Notes under the pieces: model-generated
What the model was told of the DNA's origin: nothing
Database searches by the model: none
The model's input: only the letters and a program-made list of their open reading frames with translations
Position numbers and translations under genes: made by a program
DNA from: an uncultured Fibrobacterota bacterium
GTDB lineage: Bacteria > Fibrobacterota > Chitinivibrionia > Chitinivibrionales > FEN-1185
DNA: 41,196 nucleotides
NCBI GenBank assembly: GCA_963753345.1
Contig: CAVWBU010000030.1
Coordinates: forward strand, 1-41,196
Reading direction: 5' to 3'
In this document: piece after piece, positions 4,326-25,149 of the stretch
How the letters are laid out: the number at the start of each line of letters is the position of its first letter
Numbering within the stretch: position 1 is the stretch's first letter

Positions 4326-4352
4326 GGGAAGTCCAGTCCTTTTATTGCTCTA

Positions 4353-4488: not shown

Positions 4489-4949
4489 GGGCGCCCCGCC
4501 GAAGACGGCGGCGGCCCTCCTTCCGGTCTCGGCCTGCGGCCTCGGGCCGCCACGGCCCTATGCCTTTTGTAGAAACGCAGCGCCGCTGTGTCTCTACAAA
4601 AGGCGGGTCCGGGCGGCATCGCGCTCCAGCGCGACCTCCAGTCCGGCCTGGCGCGCGGCATCAGAAACGCGTTCTGTCAATGAGTTTTTCTCGCGCCAAT
4701 TGGGATTTTTTGGCAGGAAAGCGGTCACTGGTGTTTCCCAAACGGTTGGCTTCCCCCGGGGAGGGGATGAGGCGAAAGGAGAATTCAATTGATCAGTCTT
4801 CTGTCAACAACTCTCCGCGGGTGCCCTCCAACCGAAGCTTGATACTTGCAACCATTTTTCCTAGGGGGTCACCCAGGAGGGGGCAGCGCAGGACACCGCA
4901 GGCCGCAGGCCGAGGAGGCCGGAGCGAGGGGGAAACTTCCCCCGCCCAA
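4489..4949 (+). repeat. Bipartite structured intergenic element, copy 1 (module A 4489-4654, module B 4862-4949)
   Basis: GGGCGCCCC..GGCCCTCCTTCCGGTCTCGGCC..CCTCCAGTCCGGCCTGGCGC, then CCCAGGAGGGGG..GGGGGAAACTTCCCCC; homologous to three other loci in the window. Confidence 0.88.
4569..4597. repeat. GTAG-type REP-like palindrome nested in element copy 1
   Basis: GTAGAAACGCAGCGCCGCTGTGTCTCTAC, extended by CCTTTT/AAAAGG arms; absent from the other copies. Confidence 0.6.
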
Positions 4950-4973
4950 ACCAATATTTTTTTCCATTATCAA

Positions 4974-5753
4974 TTAATCTAATTTGAATTTCTGCCCCAG
5001 ATAAATCCTCCTCGCCTCCGGGTTCTCCGCCAGTTCCTTCGAAGTCCCGGAAATGAGGATCTTTCCTTCCGAGATAATATACGCACGGTCGGTGATCCTT
5101 AACGTCTCGCGCACATTATGATCCGTAATCAAAATTCCATAGTTTTTGCTTCGCAGGTCATGCACGATGCTCTGGATGTCTTCCACCGCAATGGGGTCGA
5201 TGCCGGCGAACGGCTCGTCGAGCAGGATGAAATCGGGCTTGTTGGCGAGGGCGCGGGCGATTTCCACGCGGCGGCGTTCGCCGCCGGAAAGCTGGTATCC
5301 AAGGCTCTTTTCCAGATGCGACACATGCAGTTCTTCGAGCAATTGGTGCATGCGCTCCTTGCGCACCCTTGCGCCCATGTGCTGCGATTCGAGAATGGCC
5401 AGAATATTGTCGCCCACCGAAAGCTTGCGGAAGATGGAGGCCTCCTGCGACAGGTAGCCGATGCCCATGCGCGCCCGCTTGTACATGGGTCTGCGCGAGA
5501 TGTCGTGGTTGTCAAGGAAGATTCTTCCCCTGTTGGCCCGTATCATGCCCACGATCATGTAGAACGTGGTGGTCTTGCCCGCGCCGTTGGGGCCCAGAAG
5601 CCCCACGATTTCGCCCTGCTGCACGGTGATGGTCACGCAGTCGACCACCCGGCGCTTGCTGTAGATTTTCACCAGGTCCTCGGTCCGGATCTCTCTGGCT
5701 GGCGGGGACGCTGCTGCCGCTTGCGCGGCGTCGTTGTGGATGTTTTCGGTCAC
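4974..5753 (-). CDS. lptB: LPS export ABC transporter ATP-binding protein
   Basis: [49 protein letters not shown]. Start at GTG 5753 overlaps the upstream stop. Confidence 0.97.
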
Positions 5754-6913
5754 TTGGGCGGTTCCTTTTTTGCGGGAGGTTTGGCCTTTTCCTGTATGCC
5801 GCTGTCCGCGGCGGGTCGGGGCGGCGCGGGCTGGGGCGCGTAGAACCCGCGCACAGTGCCCGAGAGCTTCACGTGCGTCGCTTTCCCTTTTGCAAACGAA
5901 ACGGTGATGCTGTCGCCGCTCGCCTCGTTTCTGCCCCGGCCGTCCTTTTCCTCCACGGTGTAGATGCTGCGGGCGTTGCCCCACACCTTGACGCGCGAGA
6001 CTTCGCCCCGGCGGTTGAACCAGACGGTCATGAGCTTTCCGTACACCTCGTTGGTGGCAAGCGGGTTCTTTATAGGGTAGTACTTGCTCTTTACGTTGCC
6101 GATTGCCCACATGGAATCGATCCTGCCCGAATCGGTGAGAAACATGGAGATGCTGTCGCCGAACAGGTGGGTGAGCGTGGTGTCGGACGCGCCGAAATCC
6201 TTGTACAGGCCGTGCGAGGAGCCGTTCACCTTCACCCGCTGCAGGTGTTTCTTGGTGAACAGCAGGTCGACCGAGTCGCCGGCAAGGGAGTCGGTCTCGT
6301 ACGCGATCCTCGGGATCTTCCGCAGCCGCGCCTTGCCCGAATCGGGAAAATAGAACGCCTGCTCCGAGTGCGTGAACAGCTTGCCCTTCGCCACGGTGAC
6401 GTTTTCGTACACCGACGCCTTCTTGAGCGAATCGTCGTAGGTCATCTTCTTTCCCCTGATGTCAAGCGTATCGTGGGCCGCCGTATCATAAAATACGAAC
6501 CGCGGGTGTCCCTCCATCACGAGAAATTTCTTGTCGAGATAATAGCTGCCGTGATCGCCGATAAGCCGGATGCGTTCTTTTCTGTCGAAGAAATCGACGT
6601 GGCCGTCGGCGATGAGCCACTTCTTGTTCTTGTCGTAGTCCATGCGGTCGCTCGTAAGTTTCTGGCTGGTCCTGTCCACCGAAACCCTGTCGGTGAACGT
6701 CACCGTGCCCTGGGACTTGCACCACCGGGCGTTTTCCGATTTTATCAACGCATCGTCGTACAGAAACACCACGTTGCCCGTGAGCGTGGAGACCAATTCG
6801 CCGTCTTTGGACATGGTATTAATATTTGAGTTTGCCGATTTCAGAATTAGGTCTGGTGATTTTGCAAATACCAGAGTAACTATTCCAAGGATGATGAGAT
6901 TTGTTTTTTTCAT
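5750..6913 (-). CDS. LptA/OstA-like beta-jellyroll LPS transport protein
   Basis: Signal peptide [10 protein letters not shown], repeated OstA-like beta motifs (LTGNVVF, GNV, GDSI), position between lptC and lptB. Confidence 0.85.
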
Positions 6914-6924
6914 TTCTTTGTCCT

Positions 6925-7330
6925 TTGGTGGGGGCACCGCTACGCGTTTCCCCCTGGCCCCAAGCCTCCTCGTCCCGCGGGACTGCGGGGTCTCGGGGCA
7001 CACCCTCTCCAGCAAAGGGGCGCGCCTAGTGCGCTCGACTTGCGCTCGCGCGGCGTCGCCCCTTCGCAACGCAACTGCTATAGAAAATCCCGCTCCGCCT
7101 TCGGCACCTCCCCCTTGACAAGGGGGAGGAAATCTAAAACAAATACGGTCTAATCAAGTCACTTTACAATCGCGGCAGTCGCCTTCTGCCCGCGCGCCAG
7201 GCAGGACTGGAGGTCCCGCCATTGCGGGATGCCGCCCGGACCCGGCCCTGTGGGCCATAGGGCCGTGGCGGCCCGAGGCCGAAGGCTGAGACCGGAAGGA
7301 CGGCCGCCGTTGCGAAGCAGCGGGGCGCCC
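6925..7330 (-). repeat. Bipartite structured intergenic element, copy 2 (A 7194-7330, B ~6925-7064)
   Basis: Minus strand GGGCGCCCC..GGCCGTCCTTCCGGTCTCAGCC..CCTCCAGTCCTGCCTGGCGC, then GGAGAGGGTGTGCCCC..GGGGGAAAC..CCCCCACCAA. Confidence 0.85.
7107..7129. repeat. Perfect 11-bp inverted repeat in the spacer of element copy 2
   Basis: CCTCCCCCTTG-A-CAAGGGGGAGG, preceded by a GCCTTCGGC mini-hairpin. Confidence 0.7.
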
Positions 7331-7352
7331 AATTCCTTCTTCATATCTTGAA

Positions 7353-7931
7353 TTAATAGAAATTATCCCCCTTTTCCGCCCTCTCTTTGAAATTCGGAAA
7401 TCTCCCGGTCACGTTGGACTCGAACTTCCACCAGGAAAAGTCTTCCGCTGCGTCAAGGCCTTTTCCCTGCAGAACGTCGCCCTTGAGCGTCTTGATCTGC
7501 ACGTACTCGTCGGAGGTGACCCGGTGGTTCTTGATGTTCCAGTAGAGCCGCTGCGACGTGACCCGCACCCCGTTTTCCGCCTTGACGTATGCGTTTCCCC
7601 ACACGCAGAAGAGCTGCATGGGGCCGTCGGTGGTGCCGGAGTCCGACAGGACGTACATGATTTCCTTGCCGAGCGAGTCGTACACGTGAAGTTTGACCGG
7701 GTTCGCCAGTATGTGGCCGGTGTCGGCGAGGAATTTCTTCATGTGTTTCGATTCGAGCCGCCACTTGAGCCGGCCGCCGTCATAATCCGACATGGCCGTG
7801 GAATCGACCTCCTGGTACGGATGGTCCACGAGCGCGTCGGACACGGGCACCGATTCCTTTTTCGGGCCGCACGAGACAAGCACCGCCGCGGCGAGCGCCG
7901 CGCAAACGACATTTCTCTGCGGTGCTTTCAT
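7353..7931 (-). CDS. lptC: LPS export periplasmic protein LptC (lipoprotein)
   Basis: Lipobox LVSC, LYWN..VTSD..V.I...G..LQGKG motif, upstream of lptA/lptB. Confidence 0.88.
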   Translation of the reverse strand: MKAPQRNVVCAALAAAVLVSCGPKKESVPVSDALVDHPYQEVDSTAMSDYDGGRLKWRLESKHMKKFLADTGHILANPVKLHVYDSLGKEIMYVLSDSGTTDGPMQLFCVWGNAYVKAENGVRVTSQRLYWNIKNHRVTSDEYVQIKTLKGDVLQGKGLDAAEDFSWWKFESNVTGRFPNFKERAEKGDNFY

Positions 7932-8836
7932 TTGTCAACCAGCATTTCTATGGTTGGAACGTTGTGGTACCCGGCATCGGTCGGTTTTGTCTTCCAGCGA
8001 CGGTGCATCCACACCCATTGCTCCGGGTGCGCGAGGATGGTTTCGCCGATGGCCGCGTTGATGCGTTCCACGTTCTTCACCAGGTCGGCGTCCGAGCCGG
8101 CGCCGGTTTCAAGGGGGATTTTTCTGACAAACACGCGGTGGATGTCGCCGGACTCGCGCGCCGTGGTGATCACGAACACCGGAAGGTTATGACGCATGGC
8201 GAGCTTTACGGTGCCGCTCGGCGTGAAGGCGAGGCGCCCCAGGAAATGGGCGAACACGCCGTCGACGCTCGTGTCCTGGTCCAGAAGCACGCCGAACAGC
8301 CGCCCCTCGGCCAGAAGCTTGAGGAACCTCCGAAGGTTTTCCGTTCGGTGAAGGTACACGATGTTCTCGCCCGAGCGGTGGCGCTTGATGAGCTCGTCGA
8401 TCCTCCGGTCGTACAGCTCCCGTCCTATGGCAAAGCAGGCGAATCCCTGCGCCGCAAAGTAATGGAGGAGCATCTCGAAGCAGCCCGTGTGCGCGGTGAT
8501 GGTGAGCACGCCCTGTTTCCGGTTGTACGCTTCCCACACGGGACCGAGGTCGTCGCTATGTACTATCTTGTCAAGTTGGGCTTTGTTCAGGCGGGACAGG
8601 TACAGCGCGTCGAACAGGTTCTTGCCGAGGTTGACATACACGGCGCGCGCTCTCCGGCCGATTTCCTGCTCCGTCAACTGAGAACCGAACACCTGGCGCA
8701 GATGGTCCTTGCACCACCCTCGGTCCTTTGTGGGCAAAAGATAAAAGAGCCCGCCCAGCATGCCGAACAGCGCAAGGCCGGGCCTGCGCGGGAGCAGGCG
8801 CCACAGCGCGGCCACAAGGAGCGCCATGGTGTACAC
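7928..8836 (-). CDS. Lipid A late acyltransferase (LpxL/HtrB family)
   Basis: TAHTGCFE (H-X4-E), LLDQD, FLGR, HPEQWVWMHRRWK. The true start may lie slightly upstream (~8872). Confidence 0.92.
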   Translation of the reverse strand: MYTMALLVAALWRLLPRRPGLALFGMLGGLFYLLPTKDRGWCKDHLRQVFGSQLTEQEIGRRARAVYVNLGKNLFDALYLSRLNKAQLDKIVHSDDLGPVWEAYNRKQGVLTITAHTGCFEMLLHYFAAQGFACFAIGRELYDRRIDELIKRHRSGENIVYLHRTENLRRFLKLLAEGRLFGVLLDQDTSVDGVFAHFLGRLAFTPSGTVKLAMRHNLPVFVITTARESGDIHRVFVRKIPLETGAGSDADLVKNVERINAAIGETILAHPEQWVWMHRRWKTKPTDAGYHNVPTIEMLVDK

Positions 8837-8903
8837 GGTGTCGTTCTTGAACTGTTTGATGAGGTTGCTGATGCTTGGCCCCGCCCTGTTTTCAGGTCCT
8901 GGG

Positions 8904-11900
8904 TTATGCGCCGGCCACGCGGATTTGCACGCCAGCCTTGAAATCGTCGATTGCTATGGCCTCGGCCGTGGCGCCTTTGTCCAGCTCCCACCCGATGGAA
9001 ACCGCCAGGGTCTCGCTGCACACGTACTCGCGGAATTTCTCTATGGCCGAAGCAAGCGGGGCCGGTGCGGCGCAGCAAATGGCGATGCGGTCGCTCACGT
9101 TGAGGCCCGCGTTTTTTCGCATGGTCTGGATTCGATTGACAAATTCGCGTGCCAGGCACTCTTCACACAGCTCCGGGGTGATCGTCGTATTGAGCGCCAC
9201 CGTGATCCCGCCCTCGGTCTCGACTTCCACGCCTTCGTGTTTTGTGCGCCGGATTTCGATGTCGTCAATAACAATCGGATGGCCGAGCACGTCGCGCGTC
9301 TCGCCGCGTTCCAGGGCATGGATGTCGGCGCTGGAAAACGATTCGATGATTTTCGCCGCCCCCTTCATGGTGGGACCCAGAACCTTGCCGAGGCGTTTGA
9401 AGTTTGCTTTTGCGGAAAGCGACACCACCGAGCTTTCGTCCGATTCGAAGCGGACCTTCTTGACATTGAGTTCGTCCCGCAGGAGCGATTCCATGTCCTG
9501 CATGAGGCCGCGCATCGAATCGTTGCGGATCACGACCGTGAGTTCGGACAGGGGTTGGCGCGTCTTGAGGTTGAACCTGCTCCGCAGCGCGCGCGCCATG
9601 GTGACAATGGTGCGCACGTTGTGCATCTTCTCAACAAGGTCGGCGTTGGTCAGGCGGGCGTTGCTTTCCGGGTATGCCTCGCAGTGCACGCTTCCCCGCG
9701 CCGAGGAGAGATTCCGGAATATCGCTTCGGTCAAGAACGGCAGGAACGGCGCCATCAGCTTTGAAAACTCCACCAGCACCCAGTACAGGGTCGTATAGGC
9801 ATTGTTCTTGTCTTCGTCATTCTCGCTTTTCCAGAACCTGCGGCGCGAGCGCCTGATGTACCAGTTGGTAAGATTGTCGATGAAATCAACCAGCAGCGGT
9901 ACTACTTTGTAGAGGTTGTACTCTTCCATCTCCTTGTTTACCGATGCAGATGAGGCCGCGACAGAAGCGAAACGATCCATCGGTCGAGCTCGTTTGTACT
10001 GTCCAGTATGATTCTTTGGGGGCGGCGACCAGCCGTCCACGTTGGCGTAGGTCACGAAGAACGTGTAGGCGTTCCAGAACGGCAGCAGCACGGCGCGCGA
10101 CATCTCGAGCACGCCGTTTTCCGAGAACCGCAGGTCCTCGGCCTTGACTGCGGGCGAGTTGATGAGGAACAGCCTCAGCGCGTCTGCGCCGAGCTTTGCC
10201 AGGATTTCCTCGGGCGGCGCGTAGTTCCGGAGGCGCTTGGACAGCTTCTTGCCGTCCTCCGACAGAATGATGCCGTTGACAATCACGTTTCTGAACGCGG
10301 TTTTTCCGAACAGCGCGCTTGACAGCACGGTAAGGGTGTAGAACCAGCCGCGCGTCTGGTCGAGCCCTTCGGCGATGAAGTCGGCGGGGAAGTTTCTATT
10401 GAATGAATCTTTGTTTTCAAAGGGATAATGATTCTGGGCGTACGGCATCGACCCGGACTCGAACCAGCAGTCGAGAACTTCAGGCGTGCGCTTCATTGGT
10501 TTGCCGCATTTCGGGCAGGAAAGAATCAATTCATCAATGATATGGCGATGAAGATCATCTTTTGGAATTTCAGCAAACGTGACTCGTTGACCCCGTCCTG
10601 GTTCCTTTTCTGTTTCTTGAAATAGTGCCGATCCTTTTCCCCGTACATTTTTTTGGACTTTTTGTATTGCCTCTTGATGATGCTGCGACCCAAGCTTCTT
10701 GTCACCCTTACCTGCAAGTCTGTGCAAATCATCAAGACTCCCGACACATTCCCGGTGTCCGCACTCGCACAGCCACACCGGAATGGGCGTGCCCCAGTAC
10801 CGGTTGCGCGAGATGTTCCAGTCGGGCGCGCTTTCCACGCCCTTGCCGAAGCGTCCGTTCTGTAAATGAGCCGGGACCCAGTGGATGGCCTGGTTGTTGT
10901 CGAGCATGTTCTTCTTGAGCGGACCAATTTTCATGAACCACGTGGTGATCGCCTTGTAGATGAGCGCCGAGTCGCACCGGTAGCAGTGCGGGTAGCGGTG
11001 TTCCAGCGTGGAGCGGTGCACGAGCCTGCCCATTGTCTTGATGCGCTTGACAATGTCGCCGTCCGCGTCGAACACGAGCCGCCCCGCGTACTCGGGGACG
11101 TCGGCGGTGAATTTTCCCTCTTCGTCAACCGGGCACACGATGGGAAGGTCGAGCTTTGTTCCCACGGCAAAGTCGTCCTCGCCGAACGCGGGTGCGATGT
11201 GCACGATGCCCGTGCCGTCTTCGGTGGACACGAAGTCGGCGCAGGTGACGGTGAAGAATTTGTCGGATACTTTTGCAAAGTAGTCGAACAGGGGAGCGTA
11301 GCGCAGGCCCGCAAGAGTCTCGCCCGAAACCTCCTCAAGCACCGTGTACTGCGAAGCGTCCTTGTAATATGCGGCGATGCGGTCCTTTGCGACGATATAC
11401 GTTGAATCGCCGTCCTTTACTTTGAGATAGGTGATGTCCGGGCCCACGGCGCAGGCAACATTGGAGGGCAGGGTCCACGGCGTGGTGGTCCAGACGAGGA
11501 GCTTGGTGGATGGATCGTTAACAAGAGGGAAAGCGATAGTGATCGAGGGGCTCTGCACTTCCCGGTAACCTTCGTTCATCTCGAAATTCGACAGGGGAGT
11601 GGCGCAGCGCGGGCAATAGGGTTGCACGCGGAACCCCTGATAGACCAACCCCTTTTTCCACACCTCGGAAAACACCCACCAGATGCTCTCCATATACGGC
11701 GGGTCCATGGTGCGGTACTGGTTGTCAAAATCGACCCATCTGCCCATGCGCTCCACAACGCTGCGCCATTCCGAGGTATAGCGCAGCACGATGGAGCGGC
11801 ATATCTCGTTGAACACGTCGACGCCCCACTCGTCCTCGATGTTGTGCTTGCTGATGCCATGCGCCTTCTCCACCTCGTTTTCCACGGGCAGGCCGTGGCA

Positions 11901-12991: not shown

Positions 12992-13158
12992 GTGAAAATC
13001 CTTCCCTTGAGTGAGGCAAGTGCGCGTTTTTTGTCGAGCAGCACAAGCAATCAAAAATAATGCATGGAAGGGGGTCTTCGAGTGAATGGCGGGGGAAGGG
13101 AGAAAGAAGATTCACCGCAAAGGCGAAAGGGGCGCAAAGAAGAGAAGAAATAGAAATT

Positions 13159-14712: not shown

Positions 14713-14814
14713 AGTGTGATCTCCAAGGTGCTGTTGATCTGAATAAAATGAATTTGTCATATGATCGAAAGCAACGCTTATTATGGTAAATGCTATTTTC
14801 CATGCCGGTGTTAC

Positions 14815-15867: not shown

Positions 15868-15880
15868 CATTAAATTTTGC

Positions 15881-16972: not shown

Positions 16973-17790
16973 CGCTCGATGGAGATCCTGGTTATGGCCG
17001 CGTGCGACTCGGTTTGCAGCTTGAGGAAATAAATCCCGGCTGAAAGGCCTGTCGTTTCCAAATGGGCGTCATGAATGCCGGCCGATTCGGACCTGTTGAA
17101 AAGTTCTCTTATCAGCCTGCCGGTTGCGCCGTATAGCGCCATGCGAACCTGCACTTGTGCAGGAAGCGCATACCGCATTTCGATTGTTCCATTTGCGGAG
17201 CGCCATGCACGCATCGACATGGCCGCCGGGGAAGCACTGGGCCCCATGGGGTTGACCGCCTGGGAGAGCTTCTGCAGATACAATTCGACAGTAACCGTGT
17301 CCGGCCAGCCGCTGCCGGCGGGAACGGAAATCAGGGTGTCTTTGTTTTGGAACGATCCGTTCTGCGCGCCATCGATATCCTGCGCTTCAAGAATCCAGGT
17401 ATTGAAGCCAGGCGCCTGGAAAAACGTCATGTAGAACGACCCGTCGTCTGCCGTGATGGCTGAGTCGATGGTCGCCTTTGTCGCCGTATCCTTCACGGTC
17501 ACTTTTATGCCTTCAATGGTTGCATTGTCGGAAAGAGACTTGAGCGTTCCTTTGATGGTGAACTGCGCGGAGATCGGCCCGTACCAAACGACAACGCCGT
17601 ACAGTGGAGTGATGCCATAGGCAGGAACGACAATCGTTGAATCGGCTTTTGCAAGTCCCTTGCTCGTCGTCTGTATGATCTGGCCGGAGGCATACACAAA
17701 GAACGTGAAAAGGAACGTCACCGCTGCGCCGATTAGCCTGAGCAGCATCATTGACATACGGCCGGGGAGCTTGATGATTTTTTTTGCCAT
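16969..17790 (-). CDS. Exported radical-SAM partner protein with XYG repeats and T9SS/FlgD-like C-terminal domain
   Basis: Signal-like N-terminus; PAYGIT-PLYGVV-VWYGPI; F.IKG..IEGIKV..DIDGAQNG.F beta domain resembling TIGR04134 partners; C-terminal LSAGIYFLKL sorting-domain motif; 4-bp overlap with the rSAM gene. Confidence 0.8.
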   Translation of the reverse strand: MAKKIIKLPGRMSMMLLRLIGAAVTFLFTFFVYASGQIIQTTSKGLAKADSTIVVPAYGITPLYGVVVWYGPISAQFTIKGTLKSLSDNATIEGIKVTVKDTATKATIDSAITADDGSFYMTFFQAPGFNTWILEAQDIDGAQNGSFQNKDTLISVPAGSGWPDTVTVELYLQKLSQAVNPMGPSASPAAMSMRAWRSANGTIEMRYALPAQVQVRMALYGATGRLIRELFNRSESAGIHDAHLETTGLSAGIYFLKLQTESHAAITRISIER

Positions 17791-18178
17791 GGTACCCTCC
17801 GATTGCATGGGCAAGCGCTCCCAAAACGGCGAGGTATAATCACTTTTGATGGGAGCGCATTACTGGGCAGAAAACAGTGTCGGATTCAACACTCATAATA
17901 TAGTCGCGGAAAGACGGAAAGGGTTCATTCTTTTTCTTTGGGCGGGTATCATAGGTTCCCGCTTGAACGTCTTCAAAAAGGTAGGGATTTCGCGCGCCCG
18001 ACAGGAAGGGCGCAAAGCGACGCGAAGTGGTTGCCTCACCAGATTCTTATTTTCAATTTCAATCATACAGTAATCACTTTTCTCTTTCCGCCATCCCACT
18101 CCTCGAACCATATTTCTCTTACAGCAATTTCACCGGCAATTGGAAAAACAAGAAAGAAGAAAAGGAAACAAAGCCGCC

Positions 18179-19720
18179 ATGCTCGCCAAACTCCGCTCCA
18201 TGTCCGTCATGGGCATCGAGGCGTTCGAAATAGCGATTGAGGCCGACATCACCGACATGCTGCCGAGTTTCGCCATTGTGGGCCTGCCCGATGGCGCGGT
18301 GCGCGAGAGCAAGGAGCGCGTGATGTCGGCCATCAAGAACTGCGGATACGAATTCCCGGACCGCAAGGTGACCATCAACATGGCGCCCGCCGACGTCAAG
18401 AAGGAAGGCTCGGCCTTCGATGTTCCCATCGCGCTCGGGCTCCTTGCTGCCTCGGACCAGGCGATTGTGGGCCGGGCCGAGGACTATATCATTGTGGGCG
18501 AGCTGTCGCTTGACGGATCGGTAAAGCGCGTGAAGGGCATGCTGTCCATGGCCATCTGCGCCCGCGACCTGGGTGCAAAGGGCATGATCGTCCCGCGCGA
18601 AAACGCCGAGGAGGCTGCAGTGGCCGAAGGGCTGGACATCTTCCCGGTGTCTTCGCTCACCGAGGTCATCGAGTTCCTTTCGGGCGCGAAAACCATGGAG
18701 CCGTTCCGGATAGACCTTGCGGAACTGTTCAACCGCTCGCGCGAATATTCCATTGATTTTCGTGATGTCAAGGGACAGGAGCACGCGAAGCGGGCGCTGC
18801 TTGTGGCAGCGTCGGGCGGGCACAACATTATAATGGTAGGGAGCCCGGGAACCGGAAAGACCATGCTGTCGAGGCGGCTGCCCACCATTCTGCCCGATCT
18901 CACCCTCGACGAGGCGCTCGAGACCACCAAGATTCATTCCGTGGCGGGCATGCTTGACAAAAGCACTCCGCTCCTCGCCACGCGGCCGTTCCGTTCGCCG
19001 CACCACACCATTTCCGACGCGGGACTCATCGGCGGCGGGTCGTACCCCCGGCCGGGCGAGGTAAGCCTGTCGCATCACGGCGTGCTGTTTCTCGACGAAC
19101 TGCCCGAATTCACGAAGAATGTCCTTGAAAACCTTCGGCAACCGCTCGAAGACGGGAAGGTGACCATCTCGCGCGCCGCGACGTCGCTGTGCTACCCGGC
19201 GCGCTTCATGCTCGCGGCCGCGCTCAATCCATGTCCCTGCGGTTACTACACCGACCCGCGCCACACGTGCACCTGCCTGCCGCAGCAGATCCAGAAGTAT
19301 ATGTCGCGCATTTCGGGCCCGCTTCTTGACAGAATAGACATCCACGTGGAGGTCCCTGCCCTGTCGTACGAAGAGCTGGCCCAGAAGAAGCCGGGGGAGG
19401 ACTCGGCGTCGATGCGGCAGAAGGTGGCTGCCGCCCGGGCGCGGCAGACGGAGCGGTTTACCGGCGAGAAGAAGATTTTCTGCAACGCTCACATGGAGTC
19501 GAGGCATATCAGAAAATTCTGCGAGCTGTCCGCAGATTCACAGTCCATGCTCAAAATGGCTATCGAAAAGCTCGGGCTCTCGGCCCGGGCCTACGACCGC
19601 ATCCTCAAGGTCGCCCGCACTATTGCCGATCTCGACGGCCAGAGTTCGATCGCGTCCCCGCACATCGCAGAGGCGATCCAGTACAGAAGCCTTGACAGAA
19701 AATTATGGATGGGCGGTTAG
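18179..19720 (+). CDS. comM: YifB/ComM family Mg-chelatase-like AAA+ ATPase
   Basis: IVGLPD.AVRES.ERV, GSPGTGKT, RPFRSPHHT, GVLFLDELPEF, NPCPCG, SGPLLDRID, LSARAYDRILKVARTIADL. Confidence 0.95.
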   Translation: MLAKLRSMSVMGIEAFEIAIEADITDMLPSFAIVGLPDGAVRESKERVMSAIKNCGYEFPDRKVTINMAPADVKKEGSAFDVPIALGLLAASDQAIVGRAEDYIIVGELSLDGSVKRVKGMLSMAICARDLGAKGMIVPRENAEEAAVAEGLDIFPVSSLTEVIEFLSGAKTMEPFRIDLAELFNRSREYSIDFRDVKGQEHAKRALLVAASGGHNIIMVGSPGTGKTMLSRRLPTILPDLTLDEALETTKIHSVAGMLDKSTPLLATRPFRSPHHTISDAGLIGGGSYPRPGEVSLSHHGVLFLDELPEFTKNVLENLRQPLEDGKVTISRAATSLCYPARFMLAAALNPCPCGYYTDPRHTCTCLPQQIQKYMSRISGPLLDRIDIHVEVPALSYEELAQKKPGEDSASMRQKVAAARARQTERFTGEKKIFCNAHMESRHIRKFCELSADSQSMLKMAIEKLGLSARAYDRILKVARTIADLDGQSSIASPHIAEAIQYRSLDRKLWMGG

Positions 19721-19853
19721 CGGGCGGACTCGAGGTTTTGGCAAACGGGGTATATGCTCCACCCTGTCACATCGCCGGATTTATTTTCTCCCACAATAAA
19801 GCCGTTGCATCATCGAGCGTTAAAATACGGGCTTTCAATTGTGGAAGTTTGCA

Positions 19854-20072
19854 ATGGACATCATGGTTGAAACCTATTCCGGCTACAAGGCCGACGAATA
19901 CCCGCTCAGGTTTACCGTCGAGGGGCGGAAATTCTCGGTGATTTCCGTGGAGGACCGATGGTACGGTCCCGAATGTTCGTATTTCCGGGTCTTTGCAGAC
20001 GACGGGAACACGCACATCCTTAAACAGATTCCCGGCAACAACCAGTGGCAGATTATCACGCCGGACAGTTGA
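19854..20072 (+). CDS. Small conserved hypothetical protein
   Basis: VETYSGYKADEYPLRF...VEDRWYGP..YFRV.ADDG looks like a widespread ~70-aa hypothetical family; codon usage fits the host. Confidence 0.7.
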   Translation: MDIMVETYSGYKADEYPLRFTVEGRKFSVISVEDRWYGPECSYFRVFADDGNTHILKQIPGNNQWQIITPDS

Positions 20073-20152
20073 CCTGGTCGATTTCAATTTCAAGTCACTA
20101 AAATTCGTTGGTGGGTGAGTCCCAGCCTGTCTCAAAACTCAAAAGAAGATCT

Positions 20153-20591
20153 GGGCGCCCCGCCGCTTTGCGGCGGCGGCCCTCCTTCCAGGCTCGGCCT
20201 TCCGCCTCGTTGCCGCCTGCCACAAGGGCCCTTCGGGCCGTGGTCAGGCGACAATGCGCTCCAGCGCACCTTCCAGTCCGGCCTGGCGCGCGGCAACGGG
20301 AATCTATTCTGTCAATTTGTTTTCTTGCGCCAATTGGCATTCGCAACATAGTATTCAGCGCATTCACTTTGCATTTCAAACTATTCAACGTTTCAACTAT
20401 TCAACTTTTCAACGCTTTTTCTTCTCAACTTCTCAACTACTCTTCTCTGTGCCCCCGCAGCCGAAGCTTCTTTCTTGCAAATCAACTTACTTAGGGGCTA
20501 CCCAGGAGGGGAGCGCCCGCCCAACAGGAAGGGCGGAAAGCGCCGGAGGACGCGCAGGCGGCCGGAGGCAGGGGGATACTTCCCCCACCAA
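20153..20591 (+). repeat. Bipartite structured intergenic element, copy 3 (A 20153-20289, B 20491-20591)
   Basis: GGGCGCCCC..GGCCCTCCTTCCAGGCTCGGCC..CTTCCAGTCCGGCCTGGCGC, then CCCAGGAGGGG..GGGGGATACTTCCCCCACCAA. Confidence 0.88.
20375..20441. repeat. Degenerate 8-bp tandem repeats (TTCAACTA/TTCAACTT-like)
   Basis: ttcaaactattcaacgtttcaactattcaacttttcaacg...tctcaacttctcaact. Confidence 0.65.
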
Positions 20592-20795
20592 GATGTCTTG
20601 TCGAAGAGCAAATTATTTGAGACAATTCTTACACGTTTCTTACCCGAATCTTACTCTAAAATATCACACAATCTCATCTCATAGCTCTGCTATAAAGCTT
20701 TATTTAAATGTTCATGAATATCGGTCGCACTGCTGCCGCGGCGAGGTCCCGCATGGAATCGGCCATGATCCGTTGCAGTTGATAACATCCCCCTT

Positions 20796-20842
20796 ACACA
20801 AGATGTTGTGGGAGGTCTTTTTCAGATACCATCCTGTTGTGG
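20796..20842. promoter_or_regulatory. Candidate tandem NrdR boxes
   Basis: ACACAAGATGTTGTGG (20796-20811) and TACCATCCTGTTGTGG (20827-20842), 31 bp apart; consensus acaCwAtATaTwGtg. Confidence 0.45.
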
Positions 20843-21038
20843 GGGCTTGGTTTACGGGGCGCGCCATGGCGTCCGGCACGCCGCCCCCTCTGAAAATGCT
20901 TGACTTGCGGGAAGTAATGGTTGACAAAACCGCATTCCGCCACGGGAGATTTTCAAATGCGAACGCCCCCGCCCTGCATTTTCATGGGGAAGGCGGGCCG
21001 ATTTCCCTCGGAAACGGGGAAAAAAATATTAAAATTAT

Positions 21039-21067
21039 TTGACTCGCCCTCCGGGAAATAGTATAAA
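21039..21067 (+). promoter_or_regulatory. Sigma70-type promoter of the SWIB gene
   Basis: TTGACT-N17-TATAAA with an A/T-rich UP element upstream; RBS AAGGAGG before ATG 21118. Confidence 0.7.
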
Positions 21068-21117
21068 TAGGGTAGCCTTTACGGTTCTTTCACCACCACT
21101 TTCAAGGAGGTTTAACA

Positions 21118-21378
21118 ATGGCAAAGCGTAAACCAAACCCGGCTTTTATGAAGCCGATGACGCCCGACGCGGCTCTTGCCGCGGTAGTCGGAAGCAAGGC
21201 AATGCCCCGCACCGAGATCACCAAGAAGCTCTGGGCATACATCAAGAAAAACAAGCTTCAGGACAAGGTGAACAGGAGAAACATCAATGCCGATGATAAC
21301 CTGAAGGTTGTGTTCGGCGGCAAGAAGACGGTGAGCATGTTCGAGATGACGAAATTGGTTTCGAAGCATTTCGACTGA
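21118..21378 (+). CDS. Stand-alone SWIB/MDM2 domain protein
   Basis: LAAVVG..PRTEITKKLWAYIKKNKLQD..NRRNI.AD..L..VFGG..VSMFEM signature. Confidence 0.95.
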   Translation: MAKRKPNPAFMKPMTPDAALAAVVGSKAMPRTEITKKLWAYIKKNKLQDKVNRRNINADDNLKVVFGGKKTVSMFEMTKLVSKHFD

Positions 21379-21402
21379 TCCGTCTTTGATTGCAGAGTGC
21401 TG

Positions 21403-21432
21403 GCCCCGGCATGGCATCGCCGGGGCTTTCTT
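21403..21432 (+). terminator. Rho-independent terminator after the SWIB gene
   Basis: GCCCCGGC-loop-GCCGGGGC followed by TTTCTT. Confidence 0.7.
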
Positions 21433-21611
21433 ATTTTCCGGCCATCCAAGAAAACGAGCATTAACCTGGGTAAATTGTTATATTATAGGTCGGCTATCAA
21501 CGTTACTAAATCGATTAAACGGATCGGTTTCGATTCGGCCCGGCTGAAAAGAAAATTCCATCGGGGGGCCTCATGTTCAACTTCCATTTCAAGAAAGGGG
21601 AGGCGAAGGGT

Positions 21612-23207
21612 ATGAAACCAGCGCTTTTTTCTCTGCGATCTGTTGAAAAATCTTTGATGCTCTGCGCGGCATTAACGATTGTGTTGGGAGCTTTCCTCGA
21701 CGCGTCTGCACTTGGGAGAAGGCAGCTGCACTGCGGTACCGGAGGGAACATCCTTGACGAATCTGGAAATGTTGTCACCCTGAAAGGGTTTGGTCTGGGA
21801 GACTGGCTCATGACCGAAGGGTATATGTGGGGCATCACGAGCAAGAGCTATGATGCGCCGCGGGAAATGGAGGCGGGCATCATCAGTCTTGTGGGCGATT
21901 CCGCTACCGCAAAACAGTTCTGGAAGCTGTATCACGATAATTACACTACGACAAAAGATTTTTGCGCCATGAAAGCATGGGGGTGCAATGCCGTACGTGT
22001 CGGGTTCAACGCAAATCTGATACAGCCCCGCGACGGGCAGCCGGCTTCGGCTCCTTACATTTACGATCCCGAAGGCTGGAGGATAATGGACAGTGTCGTT
22101 TCCTATTGCACCGCCAATCAATTATGGCTCATCTGGGACATGCACGGTGCGCCCGGCGGCCAGAGCGCGGACAACATCGCCGATGCCGACGGGACTGCCA
22201 GACTGTGGACTCAGCCGACCGTTTACCAGCCCAGGGCCATAGATTTGTGGATGCAGATCGTTCGGAGATACGCGAACAACGACTGGGTCATCGGTTACAA
22301 CCTTCTTAACGAGCCCTTGCTCAACACCTATGGACTCGACCGGATGTTACTGCGGAACTTCTATGTCCAATTGACCGACTCGATACGAACAGTGGACAAC
22401 AAGGGGCTGCTCTTTATCGATGGGGACAACTACGCTCAGAATTTCACCGATCTTACGCCGCCATGGGATGCTCAGATCGTCTACGATTTCCACTGCTATC
22501 CGCCGTGCTGTTCCTATTTCGGGCTTGACGCCTTTGCCACACAGTACGGGACGCCGTTCTGGCATGGAGAGACCGGGGAATCCGGAGCAACTGACCCGTA
22601 CGCTCAGTATACCAACTGCGTAACCCAGCTCGAATCGCACAATCCGCCCATCGGTTGGTCCTGGTGGACCATCAAGAAGTTCAACAATGTCACCCAGCCT
22701 TGGGACGTCATCAGGACGCCCGGTTTTCAAACCATCATAAGTTACTGGAACAACGGCGGCACAGCGCCCTCTGCCGACAGTGCAAAGAAATGGCTGCTTG
22801 ACATGGCGGTAAGGACCAATTCGGACAGTACCGCGAACGTCACCTATTTGCCGGACCTCGTAAAGTCGCTCAAGCTCAGCCAGAACAACAAATGCGTCGT
22901 GGCCGCGCAGCCATACCACAAAAGCCCGGCACCCATGGGCCTTGCACTCAACCAGCGCGTGGTTCCCAATTCCCAGGTCGTCATATCCTTTACGCTTCCG
23001 GCTTCCGCGCCGGTTACTATCAGCATTTTCGATCTTGGCGGCAGGCTTGAGAAGACCCTTGCCAACCAGACCATGGCGGCCGGAAAACAGTACGTGGCAT
23101 GGGACCGGACAAACCTCGCCGGAAAGAAAGTCGCCAGCGGCGTGTATTTCTTCACCTTCACAATGGGCGACAACAGGGTTTCGCGCCATTTTGTGCTCGC
23201 GAAATAG
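21612..23207 (+). CDS. Glycoside hydrolase family 5 with FlgD/T9SS-like C-terminal domain
   Basis: Signal peptide; DMHGAPGGQ, NEP (acid/base), FHCY, GETGE (nucleophile), GWSWW; C-terminal WD.T..G..VASGVYF. Confidence 0.92.
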   Translation: MKPALFSLRSVEKSLMLCAALTIVLGAFLDASALGRRQLHCGTGGNILDESGNVVTLKGFGLGDWLMTEGYMWGITSKSYDAPREMEAGIISLVGDSATAKQFWKLYHDNYTTTKDFCAMKAWGCNAVRVGFNANLIQPRDGQPASAPYIYDPEGWRIMDSVVSYCTANQLWLIWDMHGAPGGQSADNIADADGTARLWTQPTVYQPRAIDLWMQIVRRYANNDWVIGYNLLNEPLLNTYGLDRMLLRNFYVQLTDSIRTVDNKGLLFIDGDNYAQNFTDLTPPWDAQIVYDFHCYPPCCSYFGLDAFATQYGTPFWHGETGESGATDPYAQYTNCVTQLESHNPPIGWSWWTIKKFNNVTQPWDVIRTPGFQTIISYWNNGGTAPSADSAKKWLLDMAVRTNSDSTANVTYLPDLVKSLKLSQNNKCVVAAQPYHKSPAPMGLALNQRVVPNSQVVISFTLPASAPVTISIFDLGGRLEKTLANQTMAAGKQYVAWDRTNLAGKKVASGVYFFTFTMGDNRVSRHFVLAK

Positions 23208-23230
23208 GTACTTCTCCTACGTCTCTCGGT

Positions 23231-23263
23231 AAAAACGGGCGGAGATCCTCCGCCCGTTTTTTT
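23231..23263 (+). terminator. Rho-independent (bidirectional-type) terminator
   Basis: AAAAA-CGGGCGGAG-ATC-CTCCGCCCG-TTTTTTT. Confidence 0.88.
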
Positions 23264-23368
23264 GTGCAGCCGTCTTTTCTCTTCTCCGTCCCCCGAAATC
23301 CCTTCTCGAAACGTATATTAATCGTTCGTACTGCCCCCTTTCCGGCGGCACAACCAACAGGAGGCTTC

Positions 23369-24262
23369 GTGCAGAAAAACATTCCAGTGCTTTTTGTCAA
23401 TGAGCGCACGCTTGCCGAAGCGTATGAAAAAGCGCTGGTGACCCTGTATGCCCGCGGCGCCCGGCTCAAGACCCAGTACGACAAGCCCGCCGATCCGCCG
23501 TCCATCGACGCGACCATGAACATCACCATTCTTGAACCCCTGTGCGATCCCATGATACACAAGGCCTTTCCCGGCGGCATCGACGACCTCAAGGAATATG
23601 CCATGGAAATCTGCGGCGTCAAGGACCACTGGGTGAAGAACATCAACGACCCAAAGGACACGCGCTGGGAGTACACCTATCACGGCAGGCTTGAAGCCTA
23701 CGGCGCGTGGCGCGAGCTTTCCGGCGGATCGTCGCGGGAGGCCGGGTTCTTTAAAATCAATCAGATCGAGAAGGTGATCGAAAAACTTGCCGCGCAGCCC
23801 TACACGCGCCAGGCGCAGATGATAACGTGGATGCCCAACCTCGATTTCGACTGCTACGATCCTCCGTGCCTGCAGTCGCTGTGGTATCGCATCATGGAAG
23901 ATGATGCCGGCGTGCAATGGCTCAACTGCAACGTGCGTTTCCGAAGCAACGACGCGTGGGGCGCAAACTTTATGAACATGTTCGGCTTCACGCTGTTCAA
24001 CCGCGACGTGATCGCGGCGGGCGTGGCGAAGCGCACCGGCAAGCGCGTTGAGCTAGGCCGTCTCAACTGGCACGCCGACTCGTGGCACATTTACGGAAAG
24101 GACATCGAAAACGCGAAGCAGCAGTTATTTGACAGAATAGATTCAATGACCTTTGAGGAGCGGACCTATAATTTCCACGATCCCTTCATCCAGGAGATGT
24201 TCAACGAGGCCGAGGCGAAGGTGATCAGTAAGATTCGGGAATATGATGAAAGCCATAAATAA
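23369..24262 (+). CDS. Thymidylate synthase (ThyA fold, archaeal-like)
   Basis: YTYHGRL, NQIE, PPCLQ catalytic Cys, FRSND, Asn eight residues after the Asp, HIY. GTG start with RBS AGGAGG. Confidence 0.85.
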   Translation: MQKNIPVLFVNERTLAEAYEKALVTLYARGARLKTQYDKPADPPSIDATMNITILEPLCDPMIHKAFPGGIDDLKEYAMEICGVKDHWVKNINDPKDTRWEYTYHGRLEAYGAWRELSGGSSREAGFFKINQIEKVIEKLAAQPYTRQAQMITWMPNLDFDCYDPPCLQSLWYRIMEDDAGVQWLNCNVRFRSNDAWGANFMNMFGFTLFNRDVIAAGVAKRTGKRVELGRLNWHADSWHIYGKDIENAKQQLFDRIDSMTFEERTYNFHDPFIQEMFNEAEAKVISKIREYDESHK

Positions 24263-24274
24263 TAGTCTGAATTA

Positions 24275-24693
24275 TTGGTGGGGGAAGTGTCCCCCTGGCC
24301 CCCGGCTGCCGCCGCACCCCGGAAAGCCCTTTACAAATGCACCTCAAGGTGCGGCGTCGATCCGGGGGCACACCCCCTCCTGGGTGCACCCCAAGTGGAA
24401 GTAGTGGCAGAACCAAACACCTGTGTGGGGGCACCCACGAAGAGTAGTGGATTGATGATTGCGGAATGCGGATTGAAGACAGGCATCTGCATTTACTTAT
24501 TCGAGAATTCCGATTGGCGCAAGATAAATAAATTGACGGAACAGATTTCCTCTGCCGCGCGTTAGGCAGGACTGTAGGCCGCGCTGGAGCGCGGTGCTGC
24601 CTGACCACGGCCCGCAGGGCCTTTGTGGCAGGCAGCCCGAGGCCGGAGGCCGAGACCGGAAGGACGGCCGACCCCGCGAAGCGGGGGAACGCC
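24275..24693 (-). repeat. Bipartite structured intergenic element, copy 4 (A 24559-24693, B 24275-24394)
   Basis: Minus strand GGCGTTCCCC..GGCCGTCCTTCCGGTCTCGGCC..CCTACAGTCCTGCCTAACGC, then CCCAGGAGGGGG..GGGGGACACTTCCCCCACCAA. Confidence 0.88.
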
Positions 24694-24726
24694 AAGCTCT
24701 TTTTCTAAACCCAGTATGATTTACAA

Positions 24727-25146: not shown

Positions 25147-25149
25147 CAG

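Follow-up and report, generated by a model that had tools for sequence, protein, structure and literature searches.

What fills the gaps between genes in this 41,196-nt stretch of DNA (the window), which comes from the 4.5-Mb, 94% complete genome of an uncultured Fibrobacterota bacterium (G000)? A sequence-only reading had described four copies of one covarying element, in which a module A is followed by a module B. This raises two questions. First, do A and B belong to a single element? Second, what is maintained in the copies while they diverge, and in which nucleic acid does it act? We found that hundreds of gene gaps in this one genome are filled by two folded repeat families, and these probably constitute a BIME-like mosaic of two selfish, fold-dependent, non-coding interspersed repeat families.

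Reading of the window sequence confirmed four composite copies (c1 to c4) at 4489-4949(+), 6925-7330(-), 20153-20591(+) and 24275-24693(-), all of them between called genes (own crude codon-usage gene caller). A covariance model of module A (R1) has four matches in the window and no others, and the parts of each copy are listed in Table 1. Copies sit inside a cluster of lptC, lptA-like, lptB and rpoN genes, which is unbroken. As had been stated, no reading frame is conserved, the copies differing by indels and helix swaps. By nhmmer each of the four A modules in the window is followed by a B, whereas the covariance model of L2+B (R2) finds three of the four B modules, because the B of c2 is of a divergent subfamily that lacks L2. 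This B gives no R2 match at E<=0.1 with the filters off; used as a seed, it has 43 first-round matches and then leads to the B family itself, 268 of its 284 matches overlapping B matches. Stretches similar to the small hairpin module of copy 2 are also present 3′ of other A copies.

Table 1. Parts of the four composite copies in the window
Feature	Position	Strand	Evidence
Copy 1 module A, multi-helix, with ~30-nt extra hairpin at P5 tip	4489..4668	+	R1 143.9 bits, E 2.4e-26; sequence read
Copy 1 L1 tail of module A, TTCTGTCAAT ... GCGCCAATTGG	4669..4703	+	sequence read
Copy 1 module L2+B; terminal GGGGGA..CCCCC hairpin	4799..4957	+	R2 138.4 bits
Copy 2 module A, between lptC-like and lptA-like genes, on the genes' strand	7180..7330	-	R1 147.8 bits; neighbours by Pfam
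Copy 2 separate small hairpin module, CCTCCCCC..GGGGGAGG	7107..7129	-	sequence read
Copy 2 divergent B subfamily, without L2	6925..7075	-	nhmmer B model 21 bits, partial
Copy 3 module A	20153..20303	+	R1 151.2 bits
Copy 3 L1 tail of A	20303..20337	+	sequence read
Copy 3 variable spacer, short CAAC-type repeats	20338..20427	+	sequence read
Copy 3 module L2+B	20428..20600	+	R2 110.5 bits
Copy 4 module A, outer stem of GCGTT/AACGC type	24545..24694	-	R1 158.7 bits
Copy 4 L1 tail of A	24511..24544	-	sequence read
Copy 4 module L2+B	24266..24456	-	R2 110.1 bits

Module A is about 150 nt long and possesses eight named helices, a four-way junction and long-range pairs; its model consists of 46 pairs in nine nested-pair runs, i.e. 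the eight helices and the single pair 38:126. The fold is strongly supported by covariation. In 125 copies, 93.1% of the cells pair, compared with 38-46% when the partners are slid, changes on both sides occur in 38 of the 46 pairs, and the observed covariation measures were reached by none of 500 shuffles. The compensatory changes quoted in the sequence-only reading are genuine and far above chance. A structure-blind mutual-information scan of 307 A copies recovers the same pairs. All four combinations are present in 31 of 36 pairs of covarying base pairs, and the 307 copies fall into 133 haplotypes, so that the covariation does not reflect the split of one subfamily. Private changes are rarer in paired than in unpaired columns (3.04 versus 4.55 per column), with many private double compensations; an excess of private compensatory changes would equally fit selection on each copy for a host function. 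The long-range, non-palindromic pairs (P1, P1b, P3 and 38:126) covary too, which requires a single strand folded over 130 nt rather than a local cruciform. The unpaired C-rich blocks of A (TCCTTCC, CCTCCAGTCC) are conserved, also in other genera of the order. In the second module, the GTGCCC of L2 pairs with GGGGG.CAC at the start of B; of 245 copies, 185 have CG and 60 have GC at pair 44:84.

No Rfam family matches module A at its cut-off. Flavo-1 (RF01705, cut-off 42 bits), which A had been said to resemble, has no match in the window at the gathering score or at E<=1, and none at E<=1 among the 150 of 456 genome candidates that were scored. Twister-sister (RF02681, 34 bits with the ribozyme helices formed) stays below its cut-off, with a best score of 25.5 bits in the window and 23 in the genome (150 of 977 candidates scored). 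Its matches come from the 5′ half of A, read on the bottom strand (15.5 bits in c1, 25.5 bits in c3), with a few loop strings in common, and sub-threshold matches are similar in control genomes. In the alignment to A, P1 is mismatched and one ribozyme hairpin is absent, while the proposed pairing is incompatible with the P1 of A that covaries. The eight-helix fold with its four-way junction, the C-rich blocks kept in other genera and this weak Twister-sister likeness in two copies could suggest a family of independent structured RNA genes, expressed from many loci, with A as, for instance, a new ribozyme or a protein-recruiting RNA. We regard this as hardly credible, given the lack of any Rfam family at its cut-off, the conflict with P1 and the lack of a promoter-like signal in a scan that may not fit the phylum. 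Moreover, the roughly 400 copies, among which truncated or short forms are frequent (109 short-A matches), look like decay products of a repeat.

Genome-wide, nhmmer gives about 406 matches for A and about 295 for B in the 4.5 Mb of G000; together with the L and short-A matches they cover 134 kb, or 3.0% of the genome. At this scale the rule that B always follows A, which holds in the window, breaks down: a B is located within 450 nt downstream on the same strand for 211 of the 406 A matches and a divergent B type for 11 more (222 in total), whereas neither is present downstream of the other 184. The arrays read A-L-B in 163 cases and A-L-B with a doubled L in 13 more, next to 125 solo A, 75 L-B without A, 28 A-L and 26 solo B. 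The linker blocks do not tie A and B into one element either. L1 (GTCAA ... GCGCCAA) is conserved, unstructured and placed between two palindrome-rich modules, and it belongs to the 3′ end of A: only seven L matches with an intact 5′ end have no detected A upstream, and those that were read show 3′ remnants of A. L2 pairs with B. The suggestion of a large non-coding RNA spanning A to B is not borne out, as the spacer is a variable short-repeat tract; the seed of the linker family includes a run of CTCAAC-type repeats. Within the genus, A, such a spacer and B are often arranged in one fixed order and orientation.

Module A with its L1 tail and module B with its L2 head are two separate repeat families with separate histories. 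The most similar A pairs, 95-97% identical over the aligned stretch, have 146-182 nt in common, which is A and never B, and across 156 composites the distances of the A parts and the B parts are uncorrelated (Spearman 0.015; null sd 0.026). Outside the genus, A and B reside in different genomes: 17 A and no B in G018, 16 B and no A in G030, and 13 B and no A in G039. Such independent occurrence, which the sequence-only reading itself had named as grounds for rejection, runs counter to the claim of one non-autonomous transposon of ~420-480 bp, with A as its left and B as its right end and a transposase encoded elsewhere that copies it whole. This model is already largely refuted, and we consider it very unlikely. 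It would explain why A-L-B in fixed order and orientation is the commonest array, why, for 15 of 156 composites (about 5 expected), the nearest neighbour by A also ranks in the top five by B, and the weak likeness, over 6-7 nt, between the A start TTGGGCG and a minority of B ends read in reverse complement. It does not explain the uncorrelated histories, the youngest A copies with A alone in common, or the 184 A matches without a B-type partner. Flank k-mers of at least 6 nt are common to 13.1% of the units versus 14.0% with shuffled flanks, so target duplications of this length are not in excess. None of nine distant A..B pairs of G000 encloses a transposase: the seven scanned ORFs, enclosed by six of the pairs, belong to ordinary Pfam families or to none, a further pair is free of called genes, and the other two contain weak ORFs or genes outside the scan. 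What stands of the earlier claim is that structure is kept despite divergence and that the behaviour of the elements is that of non-autonomous repeats, not of genes or leaders, which these data support. In one A subfamily, the similarity of the youngest pairs extends ~35 nt upstream of A.

Which enzyme could mobilise such repeats? Y1/RAYT (PF01797) has no match in G000 and G001 and is present in G002, G004 and G005 only, a distribution in the genus that does not follow the repeats. The reverse transcriptase family RVT_1 (PF00078) is unmatched in G000, G001, G003 and G005, as is TnpB (PF07282) in G000, whose transposase-type genes are one rve and one IS110-type. No tested family is present in the five A-bearing genomes and absent from G003. 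At its c1 site, G002 has an IS5-type element between A and B, and this element is present in G002 only; an autonomous copy with A and B ends was not found. The copies are old, with a median nearest-neighbour identity of 90%, and active transposition is therefore not demonstrated. The mobility of A and B as selfish, non-autonomous repeats is our inference.

Among close relatives, copies are replaced at the same sites. Between G001 and G000, with flanks 90-94% identical, the A at c2 and the B at c4 are exchanged for other subfamilies, and module A of copy 4 is kept at ~93% identity. At the c2 site, G004 and G005 carry the composite in the opposite orientation to that in G000 and G001. For 14 copies at orthologous sites in relatives, the best match within G000 is in no case the G000 copy of that site. 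The same-genus genome G003, which is 99% complete, has no A and no B match, and its orthologous gaps are shorter than 100 nt, compared with 648 and 440 nt in G000 (BLAST boundaries). No filled/empty pair was caught between close strains, and hence no exact insertion junction was obtained. Copies may be swapped among themselves, after settling, by recombination or by re-insertion at the same sites.

Where do the copies settle? In G000, 403 of the 406 A matches are outside called genes (own caller). The median distance to a stop codon is 27.5 nt for the 5′ end of A and 26 nt for the 3′ end of B, few being below 10 nt, and the outer ends are typically 15-35 nt beyond stop codons. Copies occur in both orientations, dispersed among housekeeping genes, and are enriched in convergent gaps (117 of 397) relative to tandem ones (200 of 2297). 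We propose that the repeats would settle in gene gaps, typically 15-35 nt past a stop codon, with no detectable target duplication. This placement also invites another interpretation, in which A and B are host-useful RNA modules in neighbouring mRNAs, such as 3′-end or intercistronic stabilisers, processing marks or translation buffers, with selection acting on every copy and recombinational spread being secondary. The outer ends lie as if to leave a terminating ribosome room, the copies within the lpt/rpoN cluster do not break it, private double compensations are in excess, and B without A has its 3′ end on the stop-codon side in 58 versus 22 cases. In addition, a transcript from the flanking gene would meet the C-rich strand, with CCTCC-type loops, first at both the A and the B end. 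Nonetheless, we judge this interpretation unlikely: solo A has no preferred orientation relative to tandem genes (31 versus 28), the c2 composite is inverted and subfamilies are swapped at the same site between relatives, and G003 manages without any copy. The loops are triloops, whereas GNRA or UNCG tetraloops are usual in functional RNAs. Terminator-like sites are not in excess in 4300-7400 (5 found, 4.6 expected), nor are promoter-like signals in the elements, by the scan mentioned above.

Compared with known systems, the A/B repeats resemble an elaborate form of the REP/BIME of E. coli. BIMEs of E. coli and other enterobacteria are mosaics of folded repeat modules with linker motifs, and the fixed order of A-L-B with its conserved linker motifs is similar. 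Shared with enterobacterial REP/BIME and the REPINs of pseudomonads are the hundreds of intergenic copies, the placement after stops and in convergent gaps, both orientations, and vertical persistence within a clade. Different from the unit of these systems, an imperfect palindrome of about 20-40 nt that often forms an inverted doublet, module A is far larger and folds by long-range pairs, and A>A< is found in only 20 of 498 arrays. Passages of PMC3337134 and PMC3116915 link pseudomonad REPINs to RAYT transposases, whereas G000 has no Y1/RAYT match. Unlike an intrinsic terminator, the terminal hairpin of B is followed by ACCAA-like bases with no immediate T run. The module order of BOX is boxA-(boxB)n-boxC, and like it the present arrays combine distinct modules, set in a fixed order, with short internal repeats whose number varies; unlike BOX, to which no sequence relation would be expected, A and B are also abundant alone, with separate histories and taxonomic ranges, and the A fold is far more complex. 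IS200/IS605-type elements have no inverted terminal repeats and no target duplications, and use folded single-stranded DNA. With their non-autonomous derivatives and with MITEs (Correia/NEMIS, Nezha) the A/B repeats share a small, non-coding, multi-copy, structured nature. They differ from MITEs by the lack of target duplications of at least 6 nt, the weak terminal likeness and no autonomous partner with the same ends being found, from IS200/IS605 derivatives by the lack of a TnpA (Y1, PF01797) or TnpB match in G000, and from retro-elements (SINE-like, group II- or retron-derived) by the unmatched PF00078. Pneumococcal BOX, RUP and SPRITE, according to passages of PMC3049150, have extensive secondary structure and a narrow clade, as here, show slow turnover, are co-transcribed with neighbours and are judged parasitic.

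The BIME likeness allows a further possibility, namely that folded or cruciform-prone modules and L1 are DNA-level host sites, which might bind nucleoid, gyrase or IHF-type proteins organising the chromosome, as proposed for BIMEs. The unstructured L1 between two palindrome-rich modules, the two orientations and the convergent-gap enrichment would suit it. The covarying long-range pairs call for a single strand that folds across 130 nt, there is no known protein partner, and G003 is devoid of copies, which makes this very improbable.

The preferred mosaic of fold-dependent repeats leaves the choice between DNA and RNA. Of 228 hairpin triloops, 138 are C-TNC-G, i.e. C-GNA-G on the opposite strand, and only 3 are GNA on the top strand; coding DNA has no such bias (1080 versus 1065). 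GNA triloops are especially stable in DNA. Together with the unmatched RVT_1 in G000 and a lean of A to one replication strand, this hints at DNA over RNA, and the spread may require one nucleic-acid strand to fold, this strand being more likely DNA in single-stranded form than RNA. The wobble-pair test is ambiguous on the strand (GU 180 versus AC 57 overall; 66 versus 57, near even, in sporadic cases), and free energy favours the bottom strand for A and the top strand for B, confounded by G-richness. Integron attC arrays consist of promoterless cassettes, a folded site closing each of them, and are served by the IntI integrase; A/B copies are dispersed among housekeeping genes instead. It is a long shot, in analogy to attC, that A and B represent a new kind of recombination site, formed by a folded single strand, read by shape, scattered genome-wide and exchanged like cassettes by a putative host-encoded recombinase. 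If true, this would explain why the fold is under selection, why the triloops are of DNA type and why target duplications and any RAYT or reverse transcriptase are lacking, as well as the fixed A-to-B order, the inversion of a whole composite at one site and the replacement of subfamilies at exact positions. The replication-strand lean of A (189 versus 130) may simply follow from the gene-strand bias, which is of about the same size.

The four intergenic stretches of the window, copies 1-4, are clearly related when their sequences are read. Each combines a multi-helix module of about 150 nt, A, with a second folded module, B. A covariance model built from the A parts of the four copies (R1) matches the window exactly at these four A modules. 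B was modelled together with L2, a short block upstream of it (R2). For the 3′ module of copy 2, R2 gives no match; an nhmmer search seeded with that module returned 43 first-round matches and converged on the B family, with 268 of 284 matches overlapping those of B.

Modules of the four composite copies in the window
Feature	Position	Strand	Basis
A, copy 1	4489-4668	+	R1 match; 144-159 bits over copies 1-4
A, copy 2	7180-7330	-	R1 match; 144-159 bits over copies 1-4
A, copy 3	20153-20303	+	R1 match; 144-159 bits over copies 1-4
A, copy 4	24545-24694	-	R1 match; 144-159 bits over copies 1-4
L2+B, copy 1	4799-4957	+	R2
L2+B, copy 3	20428-20600	+	R2
L2+B, copy 4	24266-24456	-	R2
Divergent B subfamily without L2 (3′ module of copy 2)	6925-7075	-	nhmmer with its own seed

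Genes were called with our own crude codon-usage caller and neighbours were assigned with Pfam; because the calls are crude, every count below that uses gene ends carries the same caveat. Copy 1 is flanked by an lptB-like ABC gene and rpoN, and copy 2 by lptC-like and lptA-like (LptD_N/LptA fold) genes, the conserved lptC-like/lptA-like/lptB-like/rpoN cluster at 2898-7931 having repeats inside it. Copy 4 is located after a thymidylate-synthase-like gene.

Both modules are abundant in the genome to which the window belongs (G000; 4.52 Mb in 55 contigs, 55.9% G+C, the window being contig C30). Iterated nhmmer searches gave 406 matches to A (371 near full length, median 158 nt) and 295 to B (272 near full length), and 403 of the 406 A matches fall outside called genes. 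Intergenic DNA accounts for 23% of the genome; sequence that recurs at least five times makes up 195 kb of this. A repeat search after masking A and B recovered a linker family, L, with 335 matches, as well as short A forms; together with A and B these occupy 134 kb, or 3.0% of the genome. The end of an 11.5-kb contig (C29:8700-11547) is 98.2% identical to window 2501-5348, copy 1 included, and its A/B pair, as a duplicate of about 98% identity, is not an independent copy; this duplicate is probably a strain variant or a redundant contig of the assembly. Outside the window, C16:165550-167729 and 173562-174277 hold T runs of ~2.2 kb and ~0.7 kb, then a run of the base A, which look like an assembly or masking artefact.

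The helices of A were defined by a mutual-information scan on a structure-blind HMM alignment of 307 distinct copies, in which the top-ranking column pairs are Watson-Crick compatible. The outer stem P1 reads GCGTT/AACGC in 212 copies and GCGCC/GGCGC in 85. It is accompanied by the hairpin P2, a second closing stem P1b and P3, by a C-rich internal loop (TCCTTCC opposite CCTCCAGTCC) inside which lies the lone pair 38:126 (T-A in 161 copies, C-G in 121), and by a four-way junction bearing the hairpin P4, the long arm P5/P5b and the hairpin P6. A local hairpin between columns 26-29 and 38-41, given by RNAalifold from four copies, was dropped, since the mutual information backs long-range pairs instead.

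With 125 copies aligned to R1, pairing is seen in 93.1% of cells, compared with 38-46% when the partners are slid by 1-3 columns; changes on both sides are seen in 38 of 46 pairs, the covariation score is 0.361 against at most 0.06 in the slid controls, and none of 500 shuffles matches any observed measure. This alignment was fitted to the structure, whereas the 307-copy alignment was not. The sequence-only reading had held that structure is maintained despite divergence, citing the exchange of GCGCC/GGCGC for GCGTT/AACGC in the outer stem, and these measures bear it out. All four combinations occur in 31 of 36 pairs of covarying base pairs, with 133 haplotypes among the 307 copies, so the signal does not come from one subfamily split. 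Changes private to one copy, scored relative to its three nearest neighbours, amount to 3.04 per paired column versus 4.55 per unpaired column; double compensations, for example from C-G to T-A, are frequent among them. Individual copies fold 2-3 sd better than shuffles on both strands alike, and in other genera of the order distant members have retained the loop blocks as well as the helices, the latter with new sequences. In five A copies the tip of P5 is interrupted by ~100-nt insertions (C47:56077-56346, C28:66898-67127, C31:13523-13761, C21:231389-231616 and C21:234321-234567), and copy 1 bears a smaller additional hairpin there; this arm seems to tolerate expansion, or to serve another small element as a nest.

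For B the covariation is modest, with double changes in 4 of 19 pairs. RNAalifold, on a MAFFT alignment of 72 copies, predicts a terminal hairpin and a helix in which L2 (GTGCCC) pairs with the GGGG..CAC that opens B; of 245 copies, 185 have C-G and 60 have G-C at column pair 44:84. The GTGCCC block had been taken for part of a shared linker; it is present, but through this pairing L2 belongs with B.

A had also been described as always followed by B, the two forming one bipartite element. Genome-wide, 211 of the 406 A matches have B within 450 nt downstream and 11 more have the divergent B type, which leaves 184 with neither. The arrays comprise 163 A-L-B, 125 solo A, 75 L-B, 28 A-L, 26 solo B and 20 pairs of A facing each other (A>A<). 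Of the L matches whose 5′ end is intact, just seven have no detected A upstream, and in those that were read remnants of the A 3′ end are present there; L matches without A start in the L2 part. This pattern of attachment indicates that the units are A+L1 and L2+B, L1 being the tail of A, with a variable tract of short CAAC-type repeats between them. The closest A pairs (95-97% identical over the aligned stretch) have 146-182 nt in common, which is A alone and never B; one small A subfamily also shares a block of ~35 nt upstream, and the core motif of this block is found before 14 of 375 A copies. In 156 composites, the distance between A parts shows no correlation with that between B parts (0.015, null sd 0.026), and the correlation of L with B distances is weak (0.11); the copy nearest by A ranks in the top five by B 15 times, where about 5 would be expected. 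Under Infernal's stricter filters, A was found in 10 and B in 18 of 41 genomes (40 relatives and G000). Of the other five genomes in the genus, four have both, in numbers at or near the scoring cap; outside it, one genome has 17 A and no B, and three others have 16, 13 and 9 B and no A. A and B therefore occur independently, in arrays within the genome and in different genomes outside the genus, the outcome that the sequence-only reading had named as refuting its model, and with uncorrelated histories the single bipartite element is rejected.

The outer ends of the repeats adjoin stop codons. A is found in 117 of 397 convergent gaps, where it is enriched, 69 of 403 divergent gaps and 200 of 2297 tandem gaps. 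The median distance is 27.5 nt from a stop codon to the first G of the A stem (n = 180) and 26 nt from the last C of the B hairpin to the converging stop (n = 189); most distances lie between 15 and 35 nt, with 12 in each set below 10 nt, and the 3′ end of A is never 40 nt or less from a gene. B without A has its 3′ end beside a stop in 58 cases and beside a start in 22, while solo A in tandem gaps is evenly oriented (31 versus 28), and the orientation bias is thus attributed to B. AAGA..T is weakly conserved before A and is a candidate target motif. Flanking repeats of at least 6 nt, as target duplication would leave, are not in excess over chance, nor are promoter-like or terminator-like sites in a consensus scan, in which the promoter consensus may not fit this phylum.

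Comparison within the genus shows how the sites change. G003, 99% complete, has no match to A or B; when 5-kb and 8.7-kb parts of the window are compared with it by BLAST, gene segments alone are matched (5 and 4 matches; 69-104 for the others), and by the BLAST boundaries its gaps at the sites of copies 1 and 2 are shorter than 100 nt, compared with 648 and 440 nt in G000. At the copy 1 site, G004 has A>A<, G002 has A and B separated by an IS5-type insertion, and G005 (L038:116-1082) has neither module and carries a nucleotidyltransferase (NTP_transf_8) gene with an overlapping 104-aa ORF, a pair that could be toxin-antitoxin-like. At the copy 2 site, G004 and G005 have the composite in the opposite orientation to G000 and G001. 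The copy 4 site has only A in G002 and G005 and only B in G004. For none of 14 copies at the relatives' sites is the same-site copy the best match in G000. In G001, the closest relative, the genes flanking the sites are 90-94% identical to those of G000. At the copy 2 site the homology ends at the edge of the element, and G001 has there, in the same orientation, an A with the other type of outer stem; at the copy 4 site A+L1 is ~93% identical except for an enlarged P2 hairpin, and L2+B comes from a different subfamily. Over a further 20 kb the genes are 88-96% identical, and the gaps are similar in length and unalignable at E <= 1e-60. No site filled in one and empty in the other of these two genomes was found in window 2898-7931, 18179-26913 or the further 20 kb. 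The contents of the sites across the genus imply that copies are gained, inverted and exchanged at fixed sites.

A search for a mobilising enzyme gave no match to Y1/RAYT, RVT_1 or TnpB in G000 (94% complete), which has one rve gene and one IS110-type gene. Across the six genomes of the genus, none of Y1_Tnp, RVT_1, rve, IS110 and TnpB is present in all five repeat-bearing genomes yet absent from G003. Nine distant A..B pairs, 665-4153 nt apart, occur in G000. The ORF scan covered seven ORFs enclosed by six of them, one pair having no called gene and the pairs C22 and C49 enclosing a weak ORF or genes outside the scan; the scanned ORFs belong to the EEP nuclease family, are carboxypeptidase-regulatory-like, Ig-like or MmeI-type methylase, or have no family. 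A transposase between A and B, which the sequence-only reading had suggested looking for, is not among these scanned ORFs. At the copy 1 site of G002 (L034:3697-4806), the gene between A and B does encode an IS5-type transposase (DUF772 + DDE_Tnp_1). Among the six genomes of the genus its matches are confined to G002, where there are 77, about 55 of which are full-length and 99-100% identical; it was rejected as the mover of the repeats, being a recent burst private to G002.

The loops and pairs of A were compared with what RNA or DNA would favour. Triloops predominate in the hairpins P2, P4 and P5b; of 228 triloops, 138 are C-TNC-G and 3 are GNA on the top strand. On the opposite strand C-TNC-G reads C-GNA-G. 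Perfect mini-hairpins with TNC outnumber those with GNA by 528 to 29 in A, compared with 1080 to 1065 in coding DNA. The C-GNA-G triloop is a very stable mini-hairpin motif of DNA, and functional RNAs favour GNRA or UNCG tetraloops. If this triloop rule is right, the loops of A point to folded DNA. G-U pairs exceed A-C pairs overall (180 versus 57); three pairs at helix ends account for the excess, and among sporadic cases the two kinds are even (66 versus 57), so that this strand test is ambiguous. With RNA parameters the better-folding strand is the bottom one for A (231 of 317) and the top one for B (178 of 245); both are also the G-rich strands, so this free-energy test is confounded. The top strand of A lies on the C-rich replication strand in 189 cases versus 130, a bias no larger than that of gene strands.

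REP/BIME, BOX and ERIC repeats are usually simple hairpins; A differs from them in having 150 nt and eight covarying helices, to which a second structured module, B, is added. The nearest analogues are the REP/BIME-REPIN systems and the pneumococcal BOX elements (PMC3049150), both alike in behaviour and not in sequence or fold. No description of the repeats was found in the available text of the literature on Chitinivibrionales and on intergenic repeats of Fibrobacterota, supplements aside. A 21-base pattern of A gave 53 stretches in 185,579 species genomes and none in viral contigs. All four Fibrobacterota loci tested match R1, whereas none of 15 stretches from outside the phylum, several in Glycomyces, does; the bearers of pattern matches are labelled uncultured Fibrobacterota, Fibrobacteres or Chitinivibrionales MAGs. 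The repeats are a real, publicly undescribed and elaborate variant of bacterial interspersed mosaic repeats. A and B occupy about 3% of a bacterial genome, with copies in an essential operon (lptC/lptA-like/lptB/rpoN). If the fold is what the spreading machinery reads, the clade offers a rich natural data set, with hundreds of copies and a genome of the same genus without any, and possibly a route to a new way of propagating non-coding DNA; if it is as RNA that the copies are used, an uncultured phylum would have in them a large family of structured RNA modules not described before. Either way the family has no entry in Rfam and will confuse riboswitch and small-RNA searches in genomes of the Fibrobacterota.

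No Rfam 15 family reaches its cut-off in the window, and scans by E-value gave only chance-level matches. A likeness of A to Flavo-1, suggested in the sequence-only reading, is not borne out, with no Flavo-1 match at all in the window or in G000 (150 of 456 genome candidates scored). Twister-sister, which scores 15.5 bits in copy 1 and 25.5 bits in copy 3, both on the bottom strand, was rejected: none reaches 34 bits in G000 (150 of 977 candidates scored), control genomes show similar noise, and its pairing contradicts the covarying P1. Elsewhere in the window, a weak PrrB/RsmZ-like match (23229-23352, minus strand; 25.5 bits against a cut-off of 44, E 0.047) lies in the gap before the thymidylate-synthase-like gene. 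At 32085-32249, between a gene ending at 32081 and a start near 32228-32591, plant miRNA precursor models match weakly on both strands, which suggests a long palindrome.
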